From contig CAYYVW010000007.1 in assembly GCA_964473925.1 (NCBI GenBank), positions 37,205 through 101,204 of the forward strand: DNA of 64,000 bases. Direction: 5' to 3'. Each line of letters opens with the position of its first letter. Within the stretch, counting starts at the first letter, position 1. The DNA is from an uncultured Verrucomicrobiaceae bacterium. GTDB taxonomy: Bacteria > Verrucomicrobiota > Verrucomicrobiia > Methylacidiphilales > CAYYVW01. The notes under the pieces were generated by a model. It had not been told where the DNA came from. It searched no databases and was given only the letters and a program-made list of their open reading frames with translations. This document shows, piece by piece, positions 3,150-56,586 of this stretch. The translations under genes were made by a program, and so were the position numbers.

Positions 3150-4271
3150 TTATCTTCGATTGTTTTTAGGATCAAACGCATCGCGTAAACCATCACCGAC
3201 AAGGTTGTAAGCGGTGATCGTGACGAAAATCGCCATTCCGGGAAATGCCGCCTGCCACCAAGCAAAATCGATTGCTTTGCGTGCTTCGGCTAGCAGCCCA
3301 CCCCACGTCGGCACCGGTGGCGGAACCCCGAGACCCAGAAAACTCAGGGACGATTCGATTAGAATTGCCGATGCAACCCCGAACGTCGCGCTGACGACGA
3401 TGGGTCCCAGCGTATTGGGTAACAAATGACGGAGGATGATGCGTGCGTCTCCCGCACCTGTGACTCGAGCCGCGAGAATAAAAGGCTCAGCCGTCAATCG
3501 CAGCGCTTCTCCACGAACCAGGCGCGCAACTCCGGTCCATCCGGTCAGTCCAATAATTGCCATCAGAATAAATAGACTGGGCTGCATCAGTGCAATAACG
3601 GTAAGAATGAGAAAAAACGTTGGGAAGCATTCCATGACTTCCACCACGCGCGAAAGCATCCAATCGACCCGACCCCCCCAATATCCGGCCACTGCTCCTA
3701 TCAACGTGCCGAGGGTAACGCTAATTGCTGCCGCAACAAAACCAACGGAGAGCGAAACACGGCCTGCGTGCAAAAGCCGGCTAGCCAAATCTCGTCCCAA
3801 ACCATCCGTTCCCATCCAATGTAGCTGAGAAGGAGGAAGATACGATTCCGCTGCTTGTTGATACGGCCCAAAAGGAATAGGCGGTAAAATTTTAAGCTGA
3901 GAAGGCGCCGCCTCATAATCGATTGTATCTAAAAAATCGGATTGAGCAGCGCATCGAATTTCAACTCCTAGGATTACAAAAATTATTACGATAACTCCGA
4001 TGCGAAATTTTGGAACAAATCGATACCGCCAAATCAAAAATGCCAATGGAACGTAAATTAAAAAACGCCACTCAATAGAGGTAAGCGAGCGGAGTGCCGG
4101 CGCAAAAAGTACGCCGGATGCATCGATCCAAAGCAGTGGTTTATCATTAGCCAAAAGAGGCGCCGCAGCCGACAACAGGAAAAGCGCTATAATTACGCGC
4201 CAACCCCAGCGAACCCAAAGATTTTGGTCGAAAATACGTTCTACGCGATAGGACGATGACAAAGAGTTCAT
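3150..4271 (-). CDS. ABC peptide-type transporter permease (OppC/DppC-like)
   Basis: 373 aa. Binding-protein-dependent transport signature region LRLTAEPFILAARVTGAGDARIILRHLLPN, multiple TM segments. Confidence 0.85.
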   Translation of the reverse strand: MNSLSSSYRVERIFDQNLWVRWGWRVIIALFLLSAAAPLLANDKPLLWIDASGVLFAPALRSLTSIEWRFLIYVPLAFLIWRYRFVPKFRIGVIVIIFVILGVEIRCAAQSDFLDTIDYEAAPSQLKILPPIPFGPYQQAAESYLPPSQLHWMGTDGLGRDLASRLLHAGRVSLSVGFVAAAISVTLGTLIGAVAGYWGGRVDWMLSRVVEVMECFPTFFLILTVIALMQPSLFILMAIIGLTGWTGVARLVRGEALRLTAEPFILAARVTGAGDARIILRHLLPNTLGPIVVSATFGVASAILIESSLSFLGLGVPPPVPTWGGLLAEARKAIDFAWWQAAFPGMAIFVTITAYNLVGDGLRDAFDPKNNRR

Positions 4272-4286
4272 GCAAAAAAATAAAAA

Positions 4287-5276
4287 CTACCGGTAACGAA
4301 TCCGAGGATCTGCCACTGTGTATAAAATATCTGCCAAAAGAAATCCAATGAGCGTGAGCAAGCTCGTCAGTGTAAAAATACCAAGAATAACCGGGTAATC
4401 CCGCGCCAGAATTGAATCGAACGCCAACGCTCCCATGCCGGGAATCGCGAAAATGCTTTCAATAATCACGCTTCCGCCCAAAAGCGCCGGCAGTTGAAAC
4501 GCCAAGAGCGTCAGCAGCGGGATCAGCGCGTTACGCAATCCATGCCCGATCACTACGGAAAATTCCCGAAGTCCTTTGGCGCGCGCTGTGCGGATGTAAT
4601 CTTGCGAGAGCGTCTCGAGCATTGCACTGCGCATGTAGCGCGAAAGACCAGCCAAGCTTGCATACGTCAGACAAAAAATGGGCAGCACTAAATGCCACCC
4701 ACGATCGATCGCCTGGCGCCACCAGGGCCAAGCATCGGCTCCCGCACTTTGCAGGCCGTAGATGGGGAACCAGTTTAAAAAATCTCCGCCGCCAAAAAAA
4801 AGAATGAGCAGGAGCGCCACCCAAAAACTTGGTAAAGAATAGAGCATAAAAAGCGCCAACCCCGCCCCACGATCAAACGCGCCATCACGTCGGGCCGCCG
4901 AAAAAACACCAACTGGCACCGCGATTAAGTAGGCAATCAAAATGGAAGTAACGGACAATTGCAGTGAAACAGGAAGCCGTTCCATTATTTTTTTAAGCAC
5001 CGGCCTGGAATCGACATAGGAGACTCCAAAATCAAATGTTGTCAGTCGCCCAAGCCACTGAACATATCGATCCCATACGGGTCGATCGAGCTGATAACGC
5101 TGACGTAGCGCAGTGAGCGCTTCGGCGGATTGCGCATGCTGCGTTTCATCCAACCCTCGACCTCGCAAGGAAATGGGATCGCCGGGCGCGAGCTGTACCA
5201 CCAGAAAAGTAATCAGACTAATTCCCAGCAGTGTCGGAATCATCCAAAAGAGCCGCCGGACTAGATAAGTTGTCAT
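4287..5276 (-). CDS. ABC peptide-type transporter permease (OppB/DppB-like)
   Basis: Typical N-terminus MTTYLVRRLFWMIPTLLGISLITF from the ATG at 5276. EAA-loop region QDYIRTARAKGLREFSVVIGHGLRNALIP. Confidence 0.85.
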   Translation of the reverse strand: MTTYLVRRLFWMIPTLLGISLITFLVVQLAPGDPISLRGRGLDETQHAQSAEALTALRQRYQLDRPVWDRYVQWLGRLTTFDFGVSYVDSRPVLKKIMERLPVSLQLSVTSILIAYLIAVPVGVFSAARRDGAFDRGAGLALFMLYSLPSFWVALLLILFFGGGDFLNWFPIYGLQSAGADAWPWWRQAIDRGWHLVLPIFCLTYASLAGLSRYMRSAMLETLSQDYIRTARAKGLREFSVVIGHGLRNALIPLLTLLAFQLPALLGGSVIIESIFAIPGMGALAFDSILARDYPVILGIFTLTSLLTLIGFLLADILYTVADPRIRYR

Positions 5277-33085: not shown

Positions 33086-35209
33086 TTAGAACCGTCGCTT
33101 TGGCATGATCGCCGAAGGTTCATCTTCTTGTACAATGTCTGGCTCAGCACCAGGGACAGCATCCGCTGTAACGCCACCATCAGCACCAGGCCGACCGGCG
33201 GCATCAGGCACTCCAAGCGCCCCTGCAGCTTCTGCTGCCGCGATCTCGTCCACGCCGCGGAAATGGCCCACCGCCGGAGCCAGATAGCGCAGCTCAATCG
33301 GCTCGCCTTTTTCCACTGCAAAAATTCCTTTCACAATCGTACTGGCGATAGGCCCCGCCGTGACACCGCCCGCCACGCCGCCCTCTACGAGAACGCAAAA
33401 AGCGTAACGCGGATTTTCATAAGGCGCAAATCCATAGAACCAAGCACGCGTATCCTTGACGATTCGCCCTCCAATTCGAGTACTAAATTGTGCGGAGCCC
33501 GTTTTACCCGCTACCACCACGTCGGGTTGCGCAACGCGACGGCCCGTGCCCGATTCGACCACTGCACGCAAGGCGGCTTGCACTGCTTTTAAATCCGCCG
33601 GATTCACATCTAAGTTCCCTCGAACTCGCTTCTCTGGAACATTAATGAATGCCCGACCATCCGCATCCGTCACTTCCTGCGTCAGCCGCGGAAAATAAAC
33701 AGTCCCACCATTGGCGACAGCTGCCATGAGCATCGTCATCTGCAACGGCGTCACCGTTAAAAAACCCTGCCCGATAGAAAGATTGGCCGTATGCGCGGTC
33801 GTCCAACGCTCGCGCTTGCGATGTTGGGCCATCCATTCAGGGCCCGGCAAAATTCCGGACGCCTCAGGGCCAATTTCAATACCCGTGCGCTCACCCAGTC
33901 CTGCAATTTCGCAGAGAGCATCAATCGCCTGCGCTCCCGCTTTGATTCCTGCTTGATAGAAAAAAACGTTGGAAGATTTTTCCAACGCCGTATGCAATGA
34001 GATTGAGCCGAACCCAGATGTGTTGTGGTCTTTAAAGTATCGATTACCAATCGCGATTGCCGGCGGACAATTAAGGTACGTGCGCGGCGTGATTGCTTTT
34101 GCCTTCAGTGCAGCCAGCGCGACCGGAACTTTAAAAGTCGATCCCGGCGCATAGGCTTGCAGTGCGCGGTTTAGCAGCGGCTTGGAAGCATCCTGATTGA
34201 GCGCTCTCCATTCGCTGGGAGGAATCTGCGGCACAAATCGATTGGGATCGAAGCTGGGCACCGCGACCAACGCCAGAATATCTCCGCTATTACAGTCCAC
34301 GACCACCGCGGCTCCGCGCCCCACTCCTCGCATCGCCTGCTCGGCGACATATTGGATTTTTGCATCAAGCGTTAAATGAATCGTTTTACCCAGCGTTGGC
34401 GCTTCATACCCTTCTTCGCGATCAATGTACCCGCGATTATCAACGCGCAATATTTTGCCGCCGGGCTTGCCTTGCAGATGCGCATCGCGCACGCCTTCAA
34501 TTCCGACGCGACCAATCGTATCGTACTCGTATCCTTCCTCGCTGATCGCTTCCCGCGCCTCATCCGGCCGGCCGATGTAGCCCAGTACGTGCGCTGCCAG
34601 CGCACCATAGGGATAATGCCGAACCGGCCGCGCCACGATTTCCACACCGGGAATACCTAAATTGCGCTCAGAGAACTGCGCCAGCGTTGCAAAATTGACA
34701 TCCGCCTGCATTGCGTAGGGAATGTTGCGTCGAATCCGGAAGTGCTCCTGTAGATCCTTTGGATCAGGCAGCTGCTTCAATCCCAAGCTTTCCACAATCG
34801 GCTTGAGGCTTTCATGAACTATGCGGCCGATATCTACTGTCGTTTCCCACACCTGACGACGCTTGTTGTACACCCGCAAGCGCGGCACCCGGCCCTTGTG
34901 ATTGCGTGCGTAGGTCCGTTGTAATTGATCCAAGTATAAATCGATATCGTAGCTGGCACGATTTTCCGCCAGTGCAACGCCTGCGCGATCCACGACGAGG
35001 CCCCGCGCTGGAGAAAGTCGCACCGCTACCGTCGTCTGCGTGCGGAGGCGCTTCACATATTCCTGCCCGCGCGCCACCTGCAGTTCGTACAACCGATAAA
35101 TCAAGACTCCCAATGCGACCGCCCACAGTCCGCCCAGGATAATCAGCCGCCAATGGGCGATACGCCGTTCATCGACTAACATACGGAGCCGCCATAATCC
35201 GCGGAGCAA
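33086..35209 (-). CDS. mrdA: Penicillin-binding protein 2 (elongasome transpeptidase)
   Basis: 707 aa. SxxK (GSTFK), SxN (KSSN), KTG (GKTGSA). Ala/Gly/Pro-rich C-terminal tail. The start may be an internal Met (35182) because 35169-35209 overlaps mreD. Confidence 0.9.
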   Translation of the reverse strand: MLRGLWRLRMLVDERRIAHWRLIILGGLWAVALGVLIYRLYELQVARGQEYVKRLRTQTTVAVRLSPARGLVVDRAGVALAENRASYDIDLYLDQLQRTYARNHKGRVPRLRVYNKRRQVWETTVDIGRIVHESLKPIVESLGLKQLPDPKDLQEHFRIRRNIPYAMQADVNFATLAQFSERNLGIPGVEIVARPVRHYPYGALAAHVLGYIGRPDEAREAISEEGYEYDTIGRVGIEGVRDAHLQGKPGGKILRVDNRGYIDREEGYEAPTLGKTIHLTLDAKIQYVAEQAMRGVGRGAAVVVDCNSGDILALVAVPSFDPNRFVPQIPPSEWRALNQDASKPLLNRALQAYAPGSTFKVPVALAALKAKAITPRTYLNCPPAIAIGNRYFKDHNTSGFGSISLHTALEKSSNVFFYQAGIKAGAQAIDALCEIAGLGERTGIEIGPEASGILPGPEWMAQHRKRERWTTAHTANLSIGQGFLTVTPLQMTMLMAAVANGGTVYFPRLTQEVTDADGRAFINVPEKRVRGNLDVNPADLKAVQAALRAVVESGTGRRVAQPDVVVAGKTGSAQFSTRIGGRIVKDTRAWFYGFAPYENPRYAFCVLVEGGVAGGVTAGPIASTIVKGIFAVEKGEPIELRYLAPAVGHFRGVDEIAAAEAAGALGVPDAAGRPGADGGVTADAVPGAEPDIVQEDEPSAIMPKRRF

Positions 35210-35693
35210 AGCCCAATCGCCGCGGCAGTTGATTTAAAACCCAAAAAGCAGGAGGCGCCAGAGCAGCCGCAGCAAAAGAAGCGCTGTACACCACGACCCA
35301 CACATCCAGCGGCCAGCGCCACTGTTCCAACTGCCAATTATAAAAGACATAATCCAAAACCAGCCACAAGCACGTTCCCACGAATGCCAAGAGCGCCTGA
35401 TACCAAAGCTGCCGGATCCAATGAAAATGCCGCTGCGTCATGGCCAGCGCCGCCAATGCGCTGAGGCTCACTGCTGATGCGCCGGAAGCGCCTGGTGTCA
35501 AAAAATCCATCCCGAAACCCAACACAACCGTGACTAAAAAAATTCCATCTCCCGCCGTCCATAAAGCGCCATAGAGCACCACGATGGGCACTAGAAATAC
35601 GCTGAAGCTCACTCCGCCTACATGCAACAACGGCAGCGTCATCTGCAGCGCAATCGCCAAAAAACCGACCACTAAAAGATAAATCATCATCAT
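35169..35693 (-). CDS. mreD: Rod-shape-determining protein MreD
   Basis: 174-aa polytopic membrane protein between mreC and mrdA. Assigned by position and hydrophobicity. Confidence 0.7.
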   Translation of the reverse strand: MMMIYLLVVGFLAIALQMTLPLLHVGGVSFSVFLVPIVVLYGALWTAGDGIFLVTVVLGFGMDFLTPGASGASAVSLSALAALAMTQRHFHWIRQLWYQALLAFVGTCLWLVLDYVFYNWQLEQWRWPLDVWVVVYSASFAAAALAPPAFWVLNQLPRRLGFAPRIMAAPYVSR

Positions 35694-35712
35694 AATTTCT
35701 GTGCAAGCGTTC

Positions 35713-36540
35713 TTACTGCACTCCTACGACGATAAAAAGTTCATCCAAATGTTTGAGATCCACCGCCGGATCAAGCACCGCTTCGCGTGAAAGTCCAAAG
35801 CTCGTTCCCGCACCGGGACCCGGAACCTCCACGATGCTGCCGATTGCCAGCCCTGCCGGAAAAACTCCGCCCAAACCGCTTGTAAACACACGCTCTCCCA
35901 CTTCCAGTACTGCATTTTTAGTGACAAATTTCATGCGCGCGCGCGGCACCTGCTGCCAGCCGCCTTCGCCAACCACAATCCCTTGCTCGCGCGAACTCTC
36001 AATAATCGACGCAATTTTACAATTAGCATCAACGAGCAGCAGCACCTCGGTGGTGTGAGCGCCCACCGTTGTCGTCTTACCTACGATTCCACGCGGGCTG
36101 ACGATCGGCAAATCGGGACGCAAATCCGAATTATCCTGCCAGCCCCGATCGATGGTGATCGTGCTCCACCACGCCGCCGGATCCCGCGCCACCATTTTGC
36201 AGGGCAAGAGCCGCAGCGAAGACTGCTGCTTAAAGCCCAGCATTTCCCGGAGTCGTGCGTTCTCCGATTCTAACCGCCGCAGCACCTGATTTTCGGCGCC
36301 AAGCCGGCTGTTTTCTTCCGTCAACCGGTGCGCCTCTTTTTGCGCCTGTTCGAGCGTTTGAATATTTTCATCCACCTCCGTAAAGAACGTCCGCGTTTTA
36401 TCCGCGACTCTCACCACCGGCTTGAACAGGTCGAGCATCCCGCGTCGAAACGTCTCCCGCGACGCTGGCGCCAATGAAAGCCCCACCACCACCAAGACGA
36501 TCAGCGCGATGGCAAAAATCAAGCGACGTTGACGGATCAT
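35713..36540 (-). CDS. mreC: Rod-shape-determining protein MreC
   Basis: 275 aa. N-terminal anchor, coiled-coil (ENSRLGAENQVLRRLESENARLREML), beta-barrel domains (VFTSGLGGVFPAGLAIG). Confidence 0.85.
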   Translation of the reverse strand: MIRQRRLIFAIALIVLVVVGLSLAPASRETFRRGMLDLFKPVVRVADKTRTFFTEVDENIQTLEQAQKEAHRLTEENSRLGAENQVLRRLESENARLREMLGFKQQSSLRLLPCKMVARDPAAWWSTITIDRGWQDNSDLRPDLPIVSPRGIVGKTTTVGAHTTEVLLLVDANCKIASIIESSREQGIVVGEGGWQQVPRARMKFVTKNAVLEVGERVFTSGLGGVFPAGLAIGSIVEVPGPGAGTSFGLSREAVLDPAVDLKHLDELFIVVGVQ

Positions 36541-36636
36541 GGAAGAGAAAGCCTCAAGGGATGCCCCATCCTAACACAAAAAGGTCCGCTTGCGCCAGCG
36601 GCGGATCAAGCCACTCAAAAGCTCTGCCGGTTCTTT

Positions 36637-37677
36637 CTAAGAACTCCGCTCGGCCTCGGCAACGCGGCGCAGGTAGTTGAACTCCTGCAGAACCTTGCCG
36701 GTTCCTTCGGCAACCGCCGAAAGCGGGTCTTCCGCCACGTGAACGGGCAGCCCCGTCTCTTCAGAAAGCAACTTATCGATGCCCCGCAGGAGCGCTCCAC
36801 CGCCCGCCAGGACGATTCCACGTTCCACCAAATCAGCTGAAAGCTCCGGCGGGCAGCGCTCGAGCGTAATGCGCACCGATTCTACAATCTCGCTGATCGG
36901 CTCGCTCATCGCCTCACGCACTTCTTGCGAAGTCACCGTCAGCGTCTTGGGCAAGCCCGCGACCAAATCCCGCCCCTTCACTTCCATCGTGGTTTCTTTT
37001 TCCATCGGATAGGCAGAACCGATCTTAATCTTAATCTCTTCCGCCGTCCGCTCGCCTATCATGAGGTTATACGCGCGGCGCATGTAATTGGTGATGCTCT
37101 CATCGAGCTCATCGCCCGCCACACGCACACTCCGCGAGAAAACAATCCCTGCCAGGGAGATAATCGCCACCTCCGTTGTTCCGCCCCCGATATCGACAAT
37201 CATGTTGCCCGCTGCTTCTTGCACGGGCAGGCCAACGCCGATCGCCGCCGCCATAGGCTCCTCGATCAAATGCACTTCGCGTGCGCCCGCGTGCAACGCA
37301 GAATCTTTCACTGCGCGCTTTTCCACCTCGGTGATTCCCGTGGGCACGGCGATCACCACCCGCGGCCGGCCCCAGCGGCGCTTGCCCTGGGCCTTTTCAA
37401 TAAACGTCTTAAGCATCGCCTCGGTCACCTCGAAATCAGCGATGACGCCATCTTTCATTGGGCGAACTGCGACGATCGTCCCAGGCGTCCGGCCGAGCAT
37501 CCGCTTGGCCTCGTCGCCCACGGCGAGCACCTTGCGCGTCGCTTGATGCACCGCCACAACAGAAGGCTCGCGCAGCACAATCCCACGATCGGCGACGTAA
37601 ACGATCGTATTGGCCGTTCCCAAATCGATTCCGATATCCTTGGTAAAAAACTTAGAAAAATAATCCGTGAGGCTCAT
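36637..37677 (-). CDS. mreB: Actin-like rod-shape protein MreB
   Basis: 346 aa. [43 protein letters not shown]. Confidence 0.95.
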
Positions 37678-37814
37678 AGCGCGGTAAAAAATAATCCGCC
37701 CGCGGCTTTCAAACTGATAAGCAGCAAAGGCAGAGCCAAGCAGCGTGCCTTCCCCCCGCCCCTAACGTCAAGCTTGGAAGAAGGTCTCTCTCCGCGCGTT
37801 GGGCTTTATAGCAT

Positions 37815-37850
37815 AAAAAAGCCAGGGGGCCAGCGAACCAGCCCCCCGGC
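37815..37850 (-). terminator. Intrinsic terminator downstream of the distal flp gene
   Basis: Minus-strand RNA GCCGGGGGGCUGG-UUCG-CUGGCCCCCUGGC followed by UUUUUU. This is a roughly 13-bp stem (with G.U pairs) and a UUCG tetraloop, about 66 nt after the flp stop. Confidence 0.7.
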
Positions 37851-37916
37851 AGCGATCTGGCTTTGCGCTTTGGACCTCGAAACTTTGGCGGCCCAAATAG
37901 CAAAGCGCCCGCAGGC

Positions 37917-38111
37917 TTACGACGCGCTTTGCGCGACATCCAGCTTGCTGTTCACGGTCGAGAACACCTGCGTCACTTTCGTGCCGAGCTGTTGCAATAC
38001 GAAGATTGCGACGACCGAGATGAAGGCCAAGATCAACGCGTACTCAACCAGCGTCTGACCGGACTTCGAGCGTTGCGCGTTACGCGCATGTTTCATCTGT
38101 TTGCTCATCAT
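37917..38111 (-). CDS. flp: Flp/Fap-family type IVb (Tad) pilin, copy 1 (distal)
   Basis: 64 aa. Basic leader MMSKQMKHARNAQRSKSG, then the Flp motif G/QTLV-EY (G-x4-EY) in a hydrophobic helix LVEYALILAFISVVAIFVL. SD GGAGGTG lies 9 nt upstream. Confidence 0.85.
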   Translation of the reverse strand: MMSKQMKHARNAQRSKSGQTLVEYALILAFISVVAIFVLQQLGTKVTQVFSTVNSKLDVAQSAS

Positions 38112-46876: not shown

Positions 46877-46942
46877 GCGGGCGGCGGCTTAAGATTAACA
46901 TTGTCGCGCTTTTGTGCGGCTGGCATACAGGCTCTCCACGCC

Positions 46943-47671
46943 GTGAAAAAATTGAATCTCTGCCGCTGCTTTTGTCTGAGCTTGGGACTGGTCTTGAGCC
47001 TTTGGGCACTGCCTGTCCGCGTCGCTGCGGCCGATTCCATCCCCCGCGAAACGATCATTATTTCCGGCGGTCCGGCGCTGCGGTATTTTGAGCGCGGCAA
47101 GCGCAACTCGCACGATAAGTCGTGGCGCAACTTTATTGTCGCCGCAGAGCTCCAAATTAAAAAACTGCAGCCGACCACCCAGGCTGGAGATCGCATCACA
47201 TGGATGGTTTTCCGCCCCGGCTACCAGACCCGCGCTCAAGAAGAACAGGACAAGGTGCTCGAGGAAATCAAAGCGAAGGCTGCCGCGCTGAAAGTCGACC
47301 TTCTCTGGTTTGATACGACCGATCAACTCGTCAACTACTTGAATAGCGGCCAGGATCGCCGCCGAATGCCGATCGGACGCTTCGATTATTTCGGCCACTC
47401 CAACCGCGCGTGTTTTCTTTTTGATTACAGCAATCATGTAGATGGCCTCTCGACCATGTACCTGCACGAGAACCAGCTCGCGCGCATCCGGCAAAACGCT
47501 TTTGCCAAGGACGCCACTGCGCAAAGCTGGGGCTGTCATTCGGGAGAATCCTACAGCGCGGCGTGGCGCAAGCGTTTCGGCACGCCAATGCTCGGCGCAA
47601 TTGGGAAGACCGATTACTCCAACGGCGCGTTGCCGACCCTGTCGAGATCCGTCGGAAGGTGGACGCAGTGA
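46943..47671 (+). CDS. Exported hypothetical protein (His...Cys dyad, possibly caspase/clan-CD-like fold)
   Basis: The ORF is open from TTG at 46901. The GTG at 46943 gives the signal peptide (V)KKLNLCRCFCLSLGLVLSLWALPVRVAAA-DS. Contains FDYFGHSN and, about 45 aa later, QSWGCHSGES. Confidence 0.55.
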   Translation: MKKLNLCRCFCLSLGLVLSLWALPVRVAAADSIPRETIIISGGPALRYFERGKRNSHDKSWRNFIVAAELQIKKLQPTTQAGDRITWMVFRPGYQTRAQEEQDKVLEEIKAKAAALKVDLLWFDTTDQLVNYLNSGQDRRRMPIGRFDYFGHSNRACFLFDYSNHVDGLSTMYLHENQLARIRQNAFAKDATAQSWGCHSGESYSAAWRKRFGTPMLGAIGKTDYSNGALPTLSRSVGRWTQ

Positions 47672-48381
47672 AGCGCTTATTCGCCGTTCTTCTGATTGTT
47701 GCGATTTCAGGCGCGGGAGCTTTCGCGCAGCAAACCAATGCGGCTGCGCCCATTCCCATCCAACCATTGGCGACTCCTTCCACCAACGCGCCGGCTCCAG
47801 CCAAGAAAGAACATAGCGCGCCCACTCAGCCGTCAACCAATGCTCCAGCTGCAATTGCGGTAAAACCTTCGACGAACGCGGCCCCCGCTGTAGCCGCAAA
47901 TCCTACGGCCTCCGCCCAGCCTTCCAAGCCGCGGCCCGAGCCGCGCGTGCCGGTAAAGCTCACACCGCCGCCGGAGTTTGCCGAGCCCGTCTACGTTGCG
48001 CATCGATACTACGAAGAAAAAGGGGCTGGCTGGGGCTGGATCAAAAAACTGAAAGAATCCTGGTCGAGCGCCAAATGGGTTGCCCTACAAGAGACCCCCG
48101 GCAAAGCGGTGGCGCCGTGGCGCCGCAGCGGCGATCGGCAATCCGATCACAATTACGAATACCGCTTCTATGGGGTTTTCGCATCCTACTTGGCTTACGA
48201 TCCGCACCGGGATGAAACGATGCCGGTTTTTATCCTAAAGGGATACGAACCGATCGGGGAGGCGCCCGCGCTCGGTCGCAAGCCCGGGCCGCCAATGCGC
48301 TTTACCCGCTCCAAGAAAAGCGGCGCTTCTTCGCGCAGCGACCGACCGGTGCTCGGCAGCGGGGATGAGGATTGGTTCTAA
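47668..48381 (+). CDS. Exported Pro/Ala-rich protein with PSTNA repeats
   Basis: The GTG at 47668 overlaps the upstream stop (GTGA). Signal (V)KRLFAVLLIVAISGAGAFA-QQ. Three PSTNA(P/A) repeats are followed by a globular Trp/Tyr-rich C-domain. Confidence 0.5.
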   Translation: MKRLFAVLLIVAISGAGAFAQQTNAAAPIPIQPLATPSTNAPAPAKKEHSAPTQPSTNAPAAIAVKPSTNAAPAVAANPTASAQPSKPRPEPRVPVKLTPPPEFAEPVYVAHRYYEEKGAGWGWIKKLKESWSSAKWVALQETPGKAVAPWRRSGDRQSDHNYEYRFYGVFASYLAYDPHRDETMPVFILKGYEPIGEAPALGRKPGPPMRFTRSKKSGASSRSDRPVLGSGDEDWF

Positions 48382-48991
48382 CGCTTTTGCTCCTGCTATG
48401 CGTCCCTTTGATCTTCTCGGTGCCATTCTCGCCGGCTGCGTGCTGGGCAGTTGTTTTTTGCCTTGGGCAAAATTCACACCCAGTTCGTCTCGTTCACCAC
48501 AAGCCGCGGTTGCATTAGCAAAGCGGATTGCCGCGGAGGAAGATCGTTCCTGGAACAGCGCGTGGCTAGGGATGTCGGCTTCCGAATTGGATGCGACGTG
48601 GCACAACCCCTGGGACGGAATGAGCGCGTGGGCGCTGGCCGAAACAGATCCCTCACACACTCATTTCAAACGCATTGAACAAAGTCAGGTCGTCGGCCAA
48701 ACGCGGACTGCCGATCGTCTACGACTTATCTACCTAGCACCCGGCGCTGCCATCTTCGCGCTGCTTTTCTTAGCGGGATGTCACGCGCGGCGCTGGCCTC
48801 TGCTTTTGCCGCTCTTTGCCTGCGGGGGAATATACGCTCTCATTAGATGGCGACTGCAAACGTCCGAGCTCGATCGCTGGACCGCCGGCCTGGAAGCGGG
48901 GATCGGTTTGTGGCTGGCGCTCTATGCGCTGCTAGCCTTGTCGATTGTTCTTTTGTTGCGCATGCTGCTTCCGGCGCGCTGGGGTGTTTAG
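48365..48991 (+). CDS. Hypothetical membrane protein (about 4 TM)
   Basis: 208 aa. Overlaps the upstream gene by 17 nt (alternative ATG at 48398). Hydrophobic segments are LLGAILAGCVLGSCFL, LIYLAPGAAIFALLFLAG, LLLPLFACGGIYALI and GIGLWLALYALLALSIVLLL. Confidence 0.5.
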   Translation: MRIGSNAFAPAMRPFDLLGAILAGCVLGSCFLPWAKFTPSSSRSPQAAVALAKRIAAEEDRSWNSAWLGMSASELDATWHNPWDGMSAWALAETDPSHTHFKRIEQSQVVGQTRTADRLRLIYLAPGAAIFALLFLAGCHARRWPLLLPLFACGGIYALIRWRLQTSELDRWTAGLEAGIGLWLALYALLALSIVLLLRMLLPARWGV

Positions 48992-49011
48992 AGGCGCTGC
49001 CTTTCCTGAAC

Positions 49012-50346
49012 ATGAGCGCTCCCTCTTTTCGCAATGTCCTACGTGAGCGCAATTTTTCCCTGCTCTGGAGCGGGCAAGTCATCTCGTCCATCGGGGACCG
49101 CCTCTACCAACTCGCACTGGTAAAAATCGCCCTCGACTTAGGCCACCGGACTGCCGTCGGCATGGAAGGAGCCCGGCTCACCTTCTTCGGGCTTTTACCA
49201 GGCCTGCTCCTTGCGCCCTGGCTCGGTTGGGTGGTGGACCGATACTCCCGCCGCCAGGTGATGATTTTCTCCGACCTTGTCCGCGCGGCATTGGCGCTCT
49301 CATTTATTCTATGCGTTGGCACACAACGACCCGAATGGGCCGTCTATCTGCTCGTGCTAGCGATGGGCGCAGCCAGCTCGCTCTTTATCCCAGCGCGTCA
49401 GGCGATTTTACCCCAGCTGGTACGCCCGCAAGATCTTGTCACCGCTAACGCACTTATCTCGTTGGTTGGAATTATTGCCCATCTTTTCGGTGCGCTCGGG
49501 GGCGGGCTGCTCATCGCGGTCTTCGGAACCACCAGCAGCTTTGTGCTCAACAGTGCTGGCTTCATCGTGTCCGCCTGCCTGATCGCTTCTATCTTACCAA
49601 CGTCCGGAAGACTTGTACCAGAAACGGAACCCTCGATGCCCCGGCAAACAGGCTTGGGAGCATGGCTGGAGGGTTGGCGTACTCTGCAGGCGCGACCGAT
49701 GCTCTTTTCGCTCACGCTTGCCAGCGGCATCTTTGCTTTCACCAGCGGCCTTTTCTTAGTGACGCTCATCGAGCAGGTCGCGCACTACGCAGACCTTTCT
49801 TTTGCAAGCGCCACCGCAACCACACTGACAACATGGCTAACGCCGTTTGCTCCAAAACCGCCGGTTATCAATATCCCGTTCTTAGCGATTGGGATGACGC
49901 TCGCCGCACTGGGCGTCGGGCTAGGGCTCGGCGTCTTGTTCTGCGGCAAGTCACGCATCTGGCCGCGGTGGAAGCCGCTCCCCATCGCCGCGCTCGTCGC
50001 CGTGGGCATTGGTATTTTTCTCTTCGGCGGATTTTCGTCCCTCTACGGAATTGTGATCGGTTCCGTCGCGCTTGGGATGCTCGGCTCGGTGATGGCGATT
50101 CCGATCGAGGCGCGGTTGCAAGAGGAAACGCCGGCGCCGGTTCTGGGCCGCGTCTTCGCGCTGCGTAATTTTATCACAACCGCCAGCTTCTTGGCCGCCA
50201 TGGCGATTAATTTAGATGGACGACTGCTCACAGCACTCGGCCCCGGTCAGATGCAGCGAGCGCTCGGCATCCTCGCCGTCGTGCTGGCCGCTCTCCTGTG
50301 GTTGCCGCGTCGCCGCGGATGGTCGGGCTTTTGGCGAAAAGATTGA
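49012..50346 (+). CDS. MFS transporter (DUF894/EntS-like subgroup)
   Basis: The ATG at 49012 gives MSAPSFRNVLRERNFSLLWSGQVISSIGDRLYQLAL, typical of this MFS subgroup. About 12 TM; motif GWVVDRYSRRQVM. Confidence 0.8.
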   Translation: MSAPSFRNVLRERNFSLLWSGQVISSIGDRLYQLALVKIALDLGHRTAVGMEGARLTFFGLLPGLLLAPWLGWVVDRYSRRQVMIFSDLVRAALALSFILCVGTQRPEWAVYLLVLAMGAASSLFIPARQAILPQLVRPQDLVTANALISLVGIIAHLFGALGGGLLIAVFGTTSSFVLNSAGFIVSACLIASILPTSGRLVPETEPSMPRQTGLGAWLEGWRTLQARPMLFSLTLASGIFAFTSGLFLVTLIEQVAHYADLSFASATATTLTTWLTPFAPKPPVINIPFLAIGMTLAALGVGLGLGVLFCGKSRIWPRWKPLPIAALVAVGIGIFLFGGFSSLYGIVIGSVALGMLGSVMAIPIEARLQEETPAPVLGRVFALRNFITTASFLAAMAINLDGRLLTALGPGQMQRALGILAVVLAALLWLPRRRGWSGFWRKD

Positions 50347-50619
50347 GAACCTATTTGGCAAAAACCACGGTGCGCGCGGCGAGCGGTTGTGGCGGCAGAC
50401 ACGGAGTAAGGGAGGGAGTGTATCCGCAGCGATACTCGACCGACCGAGCGACACCGTCTGCCGCCGCAGGCGCCGCCGCCCAAAGGGTTGCCGCTCTTTT
50501 GCCTTCCGGCTTCTTTGCTCGCGTGGTCGAAGATCGCTTCGGATATTCTCCCGCGCTCGCGCCTCGCCAGAGGGCAAAACCTCGGGCAACGCGTACAGTG
50601 GTTTTTGCCAAACAGGTTC
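50346..50619. other. 274-bp intergenic element bounded by a 23-bp inverted repeat (structured RNA or MITE-like element)
   Basis: AGAACCTATTTGGCAAAAACCAC (50346-50368) pairs with GTGGTTTTTGCCAAACAGGTTCT (50598-50620) with one A/C mismatch. An internal 12-bp hairpin pairs GTGGCGGCAGAC (about 50389-50400) with GTCTGCCGCCGC (about 50456-50467). A small TCGAAG-ATCG-CTTCGG hairpin is also present. Confidence 0.5.
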
Positions 50620-50665
50620 TAAGACGTTGTGCAGATGCTTAAAATCACGTAACATTTTCCCTCGC

Positions 50666-51769
50666 GTGAGCCAAAAAAAATCCAACGATAGCGAAGCGTT
50701 GGATCATCTCCATGTCGTGATTCTCGCCGGCGGCAGCGGCGAGCGTTTCTGGCCGCTTTCCCGCGACGTCACGCCCAAGCATCTGCTGCGCTTCTTTGAT
50801 GCAGAGCCGCTCATCGCCAAAACTGTCCGGCGGCTGGAAGGACTCGTTCCTTTCGAGCGCATTTGGATTTTAGTGCAGGAAGCACAGCTGGAAGCCACTG
50901 CGCAAGCTCTGCCGCAATTGCCGCGCTGTCAATTTATCGCGGAGCCTGCCCGCCGCGATACGGGGCCCGCCGCCGCGCTCGCCGCCGCGCTTGTGCGCGC
51001 CCGCGATCCCCATGGCATTGTCGCGTTGCTACCGGCCGATCACCTCATCGTAAATGCCGCTGCATTACGCACGCAGCTGGCCCAAGCTGCAAAGGCCGCC
51101 GCCGCTCAAGCCGCTTTTGTCACTTTTGGCATTCTTCCCACTCATCCGGCCGATGGATTTGGATACTTGAAAATTGCCGGGCCGGCAGCGGCTTCAGATT
51201 TTTTTCAAGTGGAACGATTCGTGGAAAAGCCAGACATCAAAACTGCTACAACGTATCTTAAAGAAGGCGGATACTCTTGGAATTCGGGTATGTTTGTCTG
51301 GAAGACGGAGACGTTTCTCTCCGAAGCTAAGCGCCTGCAGCCGGAGCTGGCTGCGTTTGTTGAAAAATATCCGGCAGCGCCGACTGCGGCTGAAGCGTAT
51401 GTCCGCGAGCGCTTCTCCGCGCTGCCTAAAATTTCGTTTGATTACGCGATTTTGGAAAAAGCAGCAAACGTGCTCATGCTGCCCGCCGCGTTCGATTGGG
51501 ACGACGTCGGCAGCTGGACCGCGGTCGCACGGCACGCGGCATGCGACGCAAACGGCAATGCAATCCTCTCATCGAAAAACAACACGGTCGCGCTGCACGA
51601 AGCGCAAGACAATGTCGTCGTGAACGAATGTCCGGACAAGCCGATCGCTCTTTGCGGCGTAAACAACCTCGTAGTCGTTCAGACCGCCGACGCACTGCTG
51701 ATCTGCCACAAAGAAGCAGCGCAGAAAATTAAAGCGCTGCTGGGCAGCCTGCCGGAAGAACTGCGATAA
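50666..51769 (+). CDS. manC: Mannose-1-phosphate guanylyltransferase (GDP-mannose pyrophosphorylase)
   Basis: The ORF is open from 50216, but homology begins at HVVILAGGSGERFWPLSR. The GTG at 50666 is the nearest plausible start. No C-terminal cupin/PMI domain (short form). Confidence 0.8.
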   Translation: MSQKKSNDSEALDHLHVVILAGGSGERFWPLSRDVTPKHLLRFFDAEPLIAKTVRRLEGLVPFERIWILVQEAQLEATAQALPQLPRCQFIAEPARRDTGPAAALAAALVRARDPHGIVALLPADHLIVNAAALRTQLAQAAKAAAAQAAFVTFGILPTHPADGFGYLKIAGPAAASDFFQVERFVEKPDIKTATTYLKEGGYSWNSGMFVWKTETFLSEAKRLQPELAAFVEKYPAAPTAAEAYVRERFSALPKISFDYAILEKAANVLMLPAAFDWDDVGSWTAVARHAACDANGNAILSSKNNTVALHEAQDNVVVNECPDKPIALCGVNNLVVVQTADALLICHKEAAQKIKALLGSLPEELR

Positions 51770-53259: not shown

Positions 53260-53565
53260 CTATGCGTCCACCGATTTGGGCGCGAGAAAGAGCCCATTTT
53301 CAGTTCGCGGCGCATTAGCCAGCGCCTGCTCGGGCGTAAAGGAGGCCTGGGGTTCGTCCGCGCGCAATCTATTCACAAAATCCTCCGCCATCCCAGGAGA
53401 TTTCACGCTGGAAACATCCACCTTTTGCAGCTGTGCGACGTAGCCGACAATGTGCTGGAGCTGCGGCTGAAATTTTTTCTGCTCCTCGGGCGTCAAGTGC
53501 AAGCGCGCGAGCCCGGCAACGTACGCCACGTCAATATCGGGGGCAGCGGAATCCGCGGAAGGCAT
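53260..53565 (-). CDS. gatC: Glu-tRNA(Gln)/Asp-tRNA(Asn) amidotransferase subunit C
   Basis: 101 aa. VAGLARLHLTPEEQKKFQPQLQHIVGYVAQLQKVD is typical of GatC. Lies upstream of gatA. Confidence 0.85.
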   Translation of the reverse strand: MPSADSAAPDIDVAYVAGLARLHLTPEEQKKFQPQLQHIVGYVAQLQKVDVSSVKSPGMAEDFVNRLRADEPQASFTPEQALANAPRTENGLFLAPKSVDA

Positions 53566-53712
53566 GCCGCGTTGTTATCGGCGCAGACGCAGTCGCACAA
53601 GCCTTTTCGTCCAAGCCGCAGCGCGTATCTTTCCAAGCCAAAACGAAGTTTGCTTTTGGCACGGGCCGCGCACACAATTTTTCCGCTCTTCCACCGGACC
53701 CGCGTTTCTGCA

Positions 53713-56586
53713 ATGCCCGCTCTTTCGAAAAACTCCGTTCCTACCGCCGGCGCCGCTTCCAGCGACCAACAGACCCCTTCGCTGGAACTGGCCCGGACAT
53801 CCCGGCGGCAGTCTCGGCGCCATGCAAGCTCGCCGTCGCCTATCCCAGAACGCCGCGCGCCATCAAATACCTCTCCTGCGAAAACTCGGGGATCTGTTCA
53901 TCGGGATCTTTTCCCGCCAATCTCGGCTCCATCCGCTCAACCGGCTGCGCTCCACGACGAAACGCCTCACTCTTTCTCCAGCAGTCGTCCGGCTTTTACC
54001 CACTCACCCTCTTACTCCTCTCATCACACAGCGGCATCCATGCCCGCAGTTCTCTTGCTCGATGCGCACAACCAGATTGTCTTTGCCAACGCCGCGCTCC
54101 GCGACCGCTTGCAAGACCCGCGCGTCATTTTGACGGGGCAACCGGTTGAGACGCTTTCCACGTGGCTCGACCCGGCACTCTTGGCTGCGCTCCAATGCCC
54201 GCCGGAAGGGCATGAGCATCAACAGACGCTCTCGCTCAAAAATTCCGAGTCGGTGGACGTCACCGTTTCGCAAGAAGATGGCACGATTGAAATTACCCTA
54301 CTGCCCGCCGCGCCGCTCTCCGAGGCTTCTGCTTCTGCCAACGGCATTGATATTCTCGCCACGCACAATCCCAACGAACGAACGCTGGCAATTTGGCACG
54401 CACCCGCGACCACCTCGGAAGGCTCTCAAAATTCAAACGAAAGCTCTATTTCCGCCGCGTGGCAGCAAGCACGCGGAGCCGCGGTTTCGATGAGCCGGGA
54501 TGAATGGGCGGGCCTGTGGAGTGAAACAGTTCCTTCGGGCAACCACGCATGGCATGCGCTGGAAGCTTCGGCGCACTGGCTGCAAGCCGCGGAAAATCTA
54601 GCCGAGCTTCGCGGAAGCCTCGGCTTGCACACCGATTTTGTGGAGTTTGAACGCGATGGACGCCCGCAACTCACCGGCACTCCTGCAACCTTGCCCGCAT
54701 GGCTTGCCGCTGCAGCGCCAGATAAAAGCATTTGGGCGACCGAGTTTTGGCTACTTTCGCTCCTCAAAAAACGCCCCACGGATTGGGAAATGCTCGAACA
54801 AGTCGAAGCGCCGATGCCTTCTACAGATCTCCGGCCCGACGGAGTTGCGCCATTGCCTGACTGGCTTCGCGGCCGACGACTGCTCATCGGTCCGGGAGTT
54901 CGCTTCGGCCGGGACGCGCTGCTTGTTGTCGAGTACGCGCACTCGCTCACTGCTGAAGGAATCAATGGATTGCTGCCCATTCTTTCGGTTCGATTGATGC
55001 GACGACCGGAAGCGCCGCTGCCTCTCTCGCCCGTGCGAAATCGTCAACGCGGGGCAACGGATTCCACGACAAGCCCCACGCCGCCGCCCGTTCGCAGTTC
55101 CAAAACTCGGGAAAAGCCAACGCCCGAGCCTACGCTTCCAGCTCCTACGCCCGTTGCCGAATCTCCCGCGCCACCGCCAACTCCAGAGCCCGAGCCCGCT
55201 CCTTCTCTCGAAAGCTTCAAAAAACTCGAGCTGCTCTCCGATGCTCCGTGGGCCGAAACGTGGCGTGCGGTCGATCCGGCCGGAAATCTCCTCTGCCTTA
55301 AAATTTTCAAGCCCGGCTACGAACGACTGGCCGAAGGCCTGCGCGAGCGAGCCGCGCAATTGCAAAAGCCCCTTCATCCCCGCATTGCTTCGCTCATTCG
55401 TGTTGAAACAAAAGCCGCGCCGCGTTTCGCGCTCTACACCTATGCGCCCGGCCGGACGCTGCATTATTGGCAGCGTCAAACGCCCCTACCCATAGACGCG
55501 TCCGCGCCGCCGCTCGAGCGTCTCGCCCCAACGCTTTCCGCCACGACAGGACCAGCCCCCACTACCACGACTCATCCTTTGCCGTTGGAATGGACGCTCG
55601 ACTGGGCGCTAGAGCTCGCCGAAGCGCTCGAGGCAGCGCACCGTAGCAGGCTTTTGCATCTCGATCTCAAGCCGTCCAACATCGTGATCGGTCCAGACGG
55701 CAAGCCAACCATCGTCGGTTTCGGGCTCGCGCTCACACCCAAACACGCCGCCGACCATCCCCCCGTTGCAACGGCGTTTGCCGAGACGGTCGCCTACATG
55801 GCGCCGGAACGCGCGCGCGCGCAAGGCGGCGTCAGCGCAACGGCCGATATCTACAGCTTGGCCGCTATTGTTTACGAGTTGCTGACCGGTAAAACCCCGT
55901 TTCATCCCTCGGGCGATTTCACCGCGGATGTAGAAGCGTTGCAGGCCCATCGCCCGACCAACCCCGGCCTGCTGCGACTCGATGTACCCGATACGCTCTC
56001 GGCAGCGCTGCTCAAAGCGCTCGATTCCAAGCCCGATCGCCGTTTTGCTTCGATGAACGCCTTCGCACAAACGCTTCGCCGAATTCGTGGCCGCAACCTC
56101 TCCACTAAAAAAACAAAAGCGCCCGGTACCAAAGGCCCCCGCTTCCCCGGCCTGCGCGCGTTGCTCACGCCTCGCCCTCAGTCGGTATTTGCACAAACAG
56201 GCAAACAGCGTCGCAACCCTCGTCGCGCGTTGCTGCTCGCCGGAGTGGTCATTGTCGCAGGCTTGGTCGCGCTCTCCTTGCACCAAAGGAAAGAGCAACG
56301 TGACGCGCTCATTCCCGTTCAACCACCCACACAAGAAAACATTCAGGTCTTTCTTCCAGAATCCGCTCCCACTGTGTCAGAGCCCGTCTCGGACATCTCT
56401 CAACCGGAAGATATTTTGCCAACCACGGCCCCCACCGAACCGGCAGATTCCTCAACAAGCCCCGATGCTGCCGCTCCCATTCCCGCAGCAACTCCTGTTT
56501 CTGAAGCAGAATCCGCCGCTGGAGCATCCGAAACTTCCGGGGACTCTCAAGACGTCGGCCAAGCCATCCTTCCGGCACTGCCTTAG
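53713..56586 (+). CDS. Large membrane Ser/Thr-kinase-like protein (PAS-like N-region, Pro-rich linker, degenerate Hanks kinase domain, TM, acidic/Pro-rich tail)
   Basis: The ORF is open from 53425 but overlaps gatC. The first plausible ATG is 53713. PAS-like AVLLLDAHNQIVFANAALRDRL. Kinase motifs are LCLKIFKP, LLHLDLKPSNIVI, IVGFGLA (GFG replaces DFG) and YMAPERA. TM segment is ALLLAGVVIVAGLVALSL. Confidence 0.75.
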   Translation: MPALSKNSVPTAGAASSDQQTPSLELARTSRRQSRRHASSPSPIPERRAPSNTSPAKTRGSVHRDLFPPISAPSAQPAALHDETPHSFSSSRPAFTHSPSYSSHHTAASMPAVLLLDAHNQIVFANAALRDRLQDPRVILTGQPVETLSTWLDPALLAALQCPPEGHEHQQTLSLKNSESVDVTVSQEDGTIEITLLPAAPLSEASASANGIDILATHNPNERTLAIWHAPATTSEGSQNSNESSISAAWQQARGAAVSMSRDEWAGLWSETVPSGNHAWHALEASAHWLQAAENLAELRGSLGLHTDFVEFERDGRPQLTGTPATLPAWLAAAAPDKSIWATEFWLLSLLKKRPTDWEMLEQVEAPMPSTDLRPDGVAPLPDWLRGRRLLIGPGVRFGRDALLVVEYAHSLTAEGINGLLPILSVRLMRRPEAPLPLSPVRNRQRGATDSTTSPTPPPVRSSKTREKPTPEPTLPAPTPVAESPAPPPTPEPEPAPSLESFKKLELLSDAPWAETWRAVDPAGNLLCLKIFKPGYERLAEGLRERAAQLQKPLHPRIASLIRVETKAAPRFALYTYAPGRTLHYWQRQTPLPIDASAPPLERLAPTLSATTGPAPTTTTHPLPLEWTLDWALELAEALEAAHRSRLLHLDLKPSNIVIGPDGKPTIVGFGLALTPKHAADHPPVATAFAETVAYMAPERARAQGGVSATADIYSLAAIVYELLTGKTPFHPSGDFTADVEALQAHRPTNPGLLRLDVPDTLSAALLKALDSKPDRRFASMNAFAQTLRRIRGRNLSTKKTKAPGTKGPRFPGLRALLTPRPQSVFAQTGKQRRNPRRALLLAGVVIVAGLVALSLHQRKEQRDALIPVQPPTQENIQVFLPESAPTVSEPVSDISQPEDILPTTAPTEPADSSTSPDAAAPIPAATPVSEAESAAGASETSGDSQDVGQAILPALP

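Follow-up and report, generated by a model that had tools for sequence, protein, structure and literature searches.

What is the GC-rich palindrome that separates a major facilitator superfamily (MFS) gene from manC in contig CAYYVW010000007.1 of an uncultured Verrucomicrobiaceae bacterium? The sequence in question occupies positions 50346-50620 of the 64-kb stretch of this contig that was analysed here (the window). An earlier note on this DNA had offered two readings: a structured RNA, be it a manC leader, an operon insulator or an independent transcript, or a non-autonomous mobile element with terminal inverted repeats. The second reading stood up and the first did not, at least as the primary identity of the palindrome, since at least 98 homologues lie elsewhere in unrelated contexts, with terminal repeats and matching flanks. 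Very probably the palindrome is a single insertion, at the stop codon of the MFS gene ahead of manC, of a non-coding miniature inverted-repeat transposable element (MITE) whose family is spread among Verrucomicrobiota genomes.

The palindrome opens with AGAACCTATTTGGCAAAAACCAC on the forward strand (50346-50368), whose partner lies on the reverse strand at 50598-50620. The two form a 23-bp inverted repeat with one mismatch, an A opposite a C, and enclose 229 nt (50369-50597). These features had been described correctly; the end of the element had been placed at 50619 (274 bp), one base short of the true end at 50620, which gives 275 nt. No comparable 23-bp repeat pair was produced by any of 100 dinucleotide-preserving shuffles of the window. 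The first base of the element (50346) is, as the earlier note said, the final base of the MFS stop codon, TGA at 50344-50346. The element does end ahead of manC, the distance from base 50620 to the GTG start at 50666 being 45 nt instead of the 46 originally given. Strictly, the 275-nt palindrome consists of a 273-nt body on the forward strand (50347-50619, GAACC...GGTTC) plus one base from each of two flanking T-N-A triplets. The nhmmer match of the family profile described below covers 50345-50622 (E = 5e-52), and the body aligns with 33 full-length homologues.

Folding predicts a four-way junction. Its closing helix, of about 30 bp, joins the left terminal repeat (50346-50375, which includes AGAACCTATTTGGCAAAAACCAC) to the right one (50591-50620, which includes GTGGTTTTTGCCAAACAGGTTCT); in the family alignment, columns 4-33 pair with columns 259-288 and compensatory changes are present. 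Arm 1, a long hairpin delimited approximately at 50376-50478 from the fold and the family consensus structure, has as its lower stem the GC-rich hairpin reported earlier, GTGGCGGCAGAC / GTCTGCCGCCGC, with one G-T position. The upper part of the arm has a (GGGA)/(CCGA) period, GG/CC pairs alternating with tandem G-A mismatches, and the apex, GUAUC-CGCAGC-GAUAC, ends in a C-GNA-G triloop. The apex motif, 'block B' (GGGAGTGTATCCGCAGCGATACTCGACC, 50414-50441, forward strand), is the sequence used to retrieve the family from metagenomes. Between the arms lies a mini-hairpin, CCC-AAA-GGG (50479-50487), whose CCC and GGG columns are invariant, relatives having CCC-NNNN-GGG. Arm 2 (approximately 50488-50590) is an inverted, diverged copy of arm 1 with a second copy of the apex motif, GGGAGAATATCCGAAGCGATCTTCGACC, on the reverse strand at 50525-50552. 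The shape called asymmetric in the earlier note is thus an inverted duplication of a unit of about 137 nt, the left half aligning without gaps to the reverse complement of the right half at 67% identity. Two blocks are near-identical between the halves, the terminal 23-mer and a 28-nt hairpin-tip motif (GGGAGnnTATCCGnAGCGATnnTCGACC); the stems between these blocks have diverged, pairing being kept in both halves. Because the arms are inverted copies, the halves can alternatively pair with each other as one long imperfect hairpin, with 104-nt arms that are 72% complementary.

Relatives were sought by scanning metagenome contigs with the apex motif TATCCGNAGCGATNNTCGACC. At least 120 loci matched, and in about 95 of the matches listed homology extends to both sides of the motif. 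A profile made from the full-length members recognizes the element in at least 98 loci and once only in the window, where no second copy had been seen before. The homologues come from soil, (activated) sludge and peat. One soil copy adjoins a gene for a GcvT with 96% identity to that of a Verrucomicrobia metagenome-assembled genome (MAG) and about 70% to that of Pedosphaera; the family therefore spans Verrucomicrobia of soil, activated sludge and peat. The full-length relatives (275-285 nt) can be aligned with the window copy over their whole length and share its closing helix, arm 1, CCC-NNNN-GGG hairpin and arm 2. Their terminal repeats sort into at least seven related, distinct types (GGGTCCGTCAAGAAAT, GGGTCTGTGCAAAAAT, GTGGTCTATTTCATAAA, GTGTGGTGTCTCCGAAA, GCAGCCTGTTGAAGAAT, AGAGCCTGTTTGAAAAT and CTGACCAGACGG), and the repeat of the window copy, GAACCTATTTGGCAAAAACC, is a further one. 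Viral contigs gave two chance matches to the repeat pattern and none to the apex motif, and BLAST searches of plasmids and phages with the window element or with the copy at locus L166 gave no match. The core motif found no match, as DNA or as RNA, in literature texts, and no paper on such MITEs in Verrucomicrobia came up in a literature coverage that is incomplete; provisionally, the family is taken to be undescribed and unnamed in Verrucomicrobiota.

The ends of the relatives bear the marks of transposition. All full-length copies have terminal repeats of about 30 bp; similarity stops exactly where these repeats end, and the flanks beyond are unrelated. Among the GGGTC-like and AGAGCC types, 14 of 14 intact index copies have identical triplets on the two sides, TTA...TTA or TAA...TAA and never a mixture (binomial p = 1e-4). 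Two copies retrieved independently of the apex motif, L166 (TTA/TTA) and the one-arm copy L106 (TAA/TAA), concur and bring the total to 16/16. Elements of the GTGTGG and GCAGCC types are inserted in CTAG, in the arrangement C-TA-element-TA-G. As judged from these sequences, the matching flanks are a TA-centred target-site duplication, of which the window copy carries a degenerate version. Its left copy would be the stop codon TGA (50344-50346), at the place where relatives have TTA or TAA, and its right copy the TAA at 50620-50622. The statement that there was no target-site duplication therefore needs correction: the TGA and TAA flanks represent, with one mismatch, the 3-bp T-W-A duplication (W, A or T) of the family. 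Locus L193 has undergone a similar decay, of the TGA/TTA type.

Distribution and rearrangement of the copies complete the picture. Some contigs of 7-15 kb hold up to three copies, and at 51 of 98 loci the element runs off the end of the locus or contig, as a repeat that interrupts short-read assemblies should; the family probably adds to the fragmentation of Verrucomicrobia assemblies from soil and sludge. Two derivatives have a single arm: at L182 (1021-1200) arm 1 alone is closed directly by its terminal repeats, and at L106 (6084-6201) arm 2 alone has its own repeat, GGCAACGGCAAAAAATAACTGTTACAAGT, between TAA/TAA flanks. The arms therefore behave as separable modules. Other copies are truncated or rearranged (L099, rearranged; L105; L192, with an internal deletion) or contain small insertions (L113, L193, L199). 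Sizes range from 273 to 285 nt and no coding capacity was found, the only open reading frame (ORF) called across the element, one of 147 aa, having no Pfam match.

The position on a stop codon is shared by other copies. Independent ends with at least 300 nt of flank, 73 on the arm-1 side and 39 on the arm-2 side, were scored for an ORF of at least 100 codons reading into the element. Twenty-two of the 73 arm-1 ends (30%), the window copy included, abut the stop codon of such an ORF, as against 4 of the 39 arm-2 ends (10%). The difference (Fisher p = 0.019) is unchanged after clustering of the flanks, and ORFs of at least 150 codons give 19 versus 3 (p = 0.024); this orientation bias is modest and is based on crude ORF calls. 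The enrichment itself might arise because TAA and TAG are both target and stop codon, so that the duplication would regenerate the stop. Insertions of this kind would be harmless and could accumulate in GC-rich genomes in which T-W-A sites are scarce, a simple route to neutral spread. Target choice cannot explain the orientation bias, because both ends of the element are symmetric.

Several observations weigh against a MITE. No transposase partner with matching repeats was found in the window, among 139 flanking ORFs or beside truncated copies, an absence that is weak with about 0.5 Mb of contigs covered. Classical bacterial MITEs measure 100-200 nt; members of this family, at 275-285 nt, are about twice that size and branched. 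Identical flanking triplets are found in only three of six copies of the GTGGTC subfamily, and those of the window copy differ by one base. The repeat variant of the window was not found elsewhere: the 19-mer CCTNTTTGGCAAAAACCAC has 74 matches in the GTDB representative collection, which does not include the source genome, and none is real, all being confined to the 19-22 nt of the pattern in unrelated taxa and attributable to chance. The window, moreover, holds one copy only. Loci L200-L203, reached through GcvT relatives of L172 and 94% identical to it over 2.5 kb, are without the element, but collinearity stops 200 nt before the insertion. Finally, the apexes are better conserved than the terminal repeats, which is unusual for a purely selfish MITE. 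Majority identity among 11 subfamily representatives rises from the terminal repeats (0.55-0.58) through the lower stems (0.60-0.63) to the apexes of arm 2 (0.72) and arm 1 (0.89), the last value being inflated by the retrieval of loci with that very motif. Copies found independently keep GGCGAGGCGCGA, TATCC and GAGCAACGAAGCC and vary elsewhere.

Could the palindrome be the by-product of a functional structured RNA, acting as a manC leader, as an element of the MFS 3' untranslated region or as an independent small RNA? We consider this unlikely, for all the stability of the fold. The minimum free energy of the forward-strand RNA is -157.5 kcal/mol, as compared with -108.9 +/- 4.8 kcal/mol for 200 dinucleotide shuffles (z = -10.0), and that of the reverse strand is -146.7 kcal/mol (z = -7.6), both far better than chance. 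RNAalifold recovers the four-way junction with compensatory changes in 68 of 87 consensus pairs, the arm apexes are conserved across subfamilies, and the orientation bias at stop codons would suit an RNA as well. In a half copy at L186 (12090-12216), moreover, a perfect Watson-Crick helix (GGGTGGGC/GCCCACCC) stands in for the G-A loops of arm 1, with the apex (GTGTATCC...GATACTCGAC) retained; this suggests that the upper arm is maintained as a helix, whether by selection or by a templated mechanism. Compensatory changes alone do not show an RNA, however, because a single transposase binding both terminal repeats would force these to co-vary. Quasi-palindromes in DNA are perfected by template switching, and covariation is thus expected at the DNA level too. 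A hand count of the pair table gives about 72 G-U against 42 A-C cells, a mild excess in cells that are non-independent among related sequences. Neither strand folds consistently better, the forward strand being favoured in 15 of 34 members with a mean difference of 0.1 kcal/mol. At gathering thresholds Rfam 15 finds only a tRNA (1111-1184) in the whole window; a permissive scan of 50200-50800 turns up nothing better than eukaryotic miRNA and snoRNA models with E values of about 1-9, and ten loci spanning all subfamilies of the relatives yield nothing but tRNA. The earlier note had seen no signature sequences of several known RNAs in the element and had judged it too large for an intrinsic terminator. 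No terminator-like site, with a short GC-rich hairpin running straight into a U-tract, nor any sigma-70 promoter-like site was seen within or beside 50346-50620. Gene context also argues against a structured RNA. The neighbours of the relatives are of the housekeeping kind and include Fe-ADH, AcrB/HlyD, T2SSE, GcvT/GcvH, TilS, an M28 peptidase, an ECF sigma factor and prepilin-like proteins; among the 139 flanking ORFs only N_methyl (4) was seen more than twice in the 25 commonest of 157 Pfam families, and clustering of 211 flanking ORFs revealed no multi-copy protein. Neither manC nor the MFS gene recurs as a neighbour, and a regulatory element specific to either gene is therefore excluded. 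The lack of a recurrent neighbour agrees with a non-autonomous element that depends on a transposase gene located elsewhere, and the target-site duplications and terminal repeats are features of transposons.

Much less probable still is a REP/REPIN-like repeat mobilised by a RAYT (HUH tyrosine transposase) or by another system that recognizes single-stranded hairpins, with the apexes as recognition sites. The element is indeed an inverted doublet of hairpin units with the apexes as its most conserved part; the C-GNA-G triloop and the tandem G-A pairs are, to judge from their sequence, stable in single-stranded DNA, and the orientation bias could reflect a replication-strand bias. The variable, matching 3-bp flanks (TTA or TAA, 16/16) speak for a staggered cut with duplication, which neither REPINs nor IS200/IS605 elements make. 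In addition, the units measure 137 nt and not 20-40 nt, they have no conserved GTAG/CGTC head, and no neighbouring gene recurs. As for a palindrome that arose by chance, or a local inverted duplication confined to this one site, the single copy in 64 kb and the failure to find the exact terminal repeat elsewhere would agree with it; with no shuffle reproducing the repeat or the fold, and at least 98 homologous loci elsewhere, it is scarcely credible. A few other candidates were considered and dropped: an integron attC site (no GTTRRRY), a sigma-54 promoter (wrong spacing), a hairpin or hammerhead ribozyme (no Rfam signal) and a cis-regulatory manC RNA (no conserved gene association among relatives). 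A possible likeness of one subfamily's repeat to 5S rRNA was dropped as well.

For a mobile element of the MITE type, the following course of events can be proposed. A transposase encoded elsewhere would bind the terminal repeats of about 30 bp and excise the element, which would insert at a TA-centred target (TTA/TAA or CTAG) with duplication of two to four bases; the repeats and the duplications are observed. In the present case the insertion would have hit the MFS stop codon, 45 nt ahead of manC. Built as an inverted duplication of a hairpin unit, the body could fold in DNA or in RNA of either strand as a four-way junction with two arms of about 45 bp, or as one long hairpin. Transcripts of the MFS gene probably include the inserted element in their 3' region. 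By analogy with Correia and ERIC sequences, the element could there take on a secondary role as a 3'-end RNA structure, serving as a stabiliser, a processing site or an insulator; some RNA-level effect after insertion may be envisaged in view of the likely co-transcription and the orientation bias.

It is possible, if doubtful, that the conserved arms do more than serve selfish spread. With similar reserve, one may picture the apexes, that is, the (GGGA)n/(CCGA)n tandem G-A helix with its C-GNA-G triloop, as a functional module that outlives the turnover of the terminal repeats. Such a module may be a recognition structure for a hairpin-binding mobilisation or accessory protein. Alternatively, it may be an RNA that Verrucomicrobia have recruited to the 3' ends of mRNAs, where, exactly at stop codons and depending on its orientation, it would stabilise the message, provide a processing site or act as an insulator. 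If the idea is true, the family would go beyond a purely selfish MITE. A secondary function is, in any event, hinted at in a testable way by the conserved G-A-rich arms and by the orientation bias.

At its own locus the element is flanked upstream by the MFS gene (ORF 48847-50346, forward strand; Pfam MFS_1) and downstream by manC (50666-51769, forward strand), which encodes a mannose-1-phosphate guanylyltransferase of 367 aa with the Pfam domains NTP_transferase and ManC_GMP_beta-helix. The exact manC product is also called in a Logan contig, and look-ups with GatA and ManC retrieve an identical locus from Logan runs SRR13608702 and SRR13608705, where the element is 100% identical. The 499-aa MFS ORF has no record in an exact protein look-up because its start codon differs. 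Apart from its 100% match in NCBI and Logan records, the ManC of the window has only 51-55% identity to other sequences, and the few relatives with organism names belong to MAGs of Methylacidiphilales, Verrucomicrobiae, Verrucomicrobiales and Opitutaceae; the MAG from which the window derives is a deep branch of Verrucomicrobiota. Besides the element, the window contains housekeeping genes only, with no transposase among its proteins by Pfam. A public gene call of 147 aa (50212-50655, reverse strand; L003 9547-9990) spans the whole element antisense and runs into the 3' end of the MFS gene; it is almost certainly spurious, a creation of the GC-rich palindrome. The element thus accounts for the ORF called across this spacer, and it cautions against inferring a riboswitch or leader for manC. 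The manC reading frame is itself open from 50216 through the element.

Some further observations concern the surroundings of the window copy and of its relatives. The first 32 kb of the window have a G+C content of about 0.49-0.53 and the last 28 kb one of about 0.58-0.62, with a step near 34000-38000. Housekeeping genes are present in both parts; those on the low-GC side include those for purine synthesis, an AsnS/LysS-type tRNA synthetase, UvrD and PBP2/MreC/MreB, and those on the high-GC side PRPP synthetase, GatCA and citrate synthase. Independent confirmation of the locus by the Logan contig is limited to the high-GC part and does not extend across the join. Just upstream of the MFS gene lie overlapping long ORFs (46895-47899, reverse strand, and 46901-47671, forward strand) and another at 48365-48991 (forward strand), none with a Pfam match; the Logan annotation has three small domain-less genes in this region. 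A Ser/Thr protein kinase ORF (53425-56586, forward strand) adjoins gatCA; it has 1053 aa if read from a TTG codon and 848 aa in the Logan call, the extent of its N-terminus being uncertain. Among the relatives, the truncated copy at L106 adjoins an ORF (3398-4681) that combines the C-terminal part of a DarT domain with a Macro domain, looking like a fused or adjacent DarT-DarG toxin-antitoxin pair. The collinearity of L172 and L200 ends at another GC-rich palindrome, GGGCAGGCTTCCAGCCTGCC...GGCGGCATCCCTGCCGCC (L200 3680-3735; in L172 on the reverse strand, about 200-280 nt before the element), possibly a further type of repeat or a hot spot of recombination.

Comparison with known systems bears on the nature of the partner transposase. 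The PHIS assemblage unites PIF/Harbinger with IS5-family groups, its tree including IS5, IS427, IS1031, IS903 and ISL2; its duplications are of 0, 2 or 3 bp, canonical Harbinger elements making 3 bp (PMC12730594). The family described here has the 2-3 bp T-W-A or TA duplications of a PHIS-mobilised element. From the duplication type alone, we would give about even chances to a partner of the IS5/PIF-Harbinger superfamily; IS630/Tc1-mariner transposases, which duplicate TA and often target CTAG, fit two of the subfamilies equally well. No transposase family occurs two or more times among the flanking ORFs in the 25 commonest of the 157 families. Tourist-like MITEs, PIF-Harbinger elements and the IS5 family (IS5, IS427, IS1031, ISL2) share the 3-bp T-W-A duplication with the present elements, some subfamilies of which have instead 2-bp TA or 4-bp CTAG. 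Terminal repeats of the type G-G/A-G-N-C-Y-G-T...AAAA presumably resemble IS5/PIF ends as well. The difference from PHIS elements is that no transposase with matching ends was found, the link consisting of the duplication type only.

Repeats of the REP, BIME and REPIN kinds, which are associated with RAYT, resemble the family in being inverted doublets of hairpin units that are intergenic and of high copy number. Their units are of 20-40 bp and GTAG/CGTC-tagged (PMC3733652), and they lack a duplication. The present units, by contrast, measure about 137 nt, have no GTAG/CGTC tag and come with real duplications and long repeats, and no RAYT gene was seen nearby. The family is closer to the bacterial MITEs, whose typical attributes are terminal repeats, TA at the termini and highly paired transcripts (PMC2229807); these it shares, together with a duplication and the lack of coding capacity. 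With the Correia/NEMIS elements of Neisseria, RUP, ERIC/IRU and MITEAba12 it has in common a non-coding body, repeats of about 24-30 bp, a TA-centred duplication, a dispersed position near gene ends and transcripts predicted to form long, stable stem-loops. Of these, RUP has been attributed to IS630-Spn1, and effects on mRNA processing or stability have been reported for Correia and ERIC (PMC2229807). Unlike Correia-type MITEs, the present elements form a four-way structure from two inverted hairpin units and not a single stem-loop; they reside in Verrucomicrobiota, mostly make a 3-bp TTA/TAA duplication, and have apexes that are better conserved than their ends. A likeness of TAGTGG...CAAAAACC-type ends to those of Correia may be a lead to relatedness, no more. 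With its T-W-A duplication, the family would rank as a bacterial counterpart of the plant Tourist-type MITEs.

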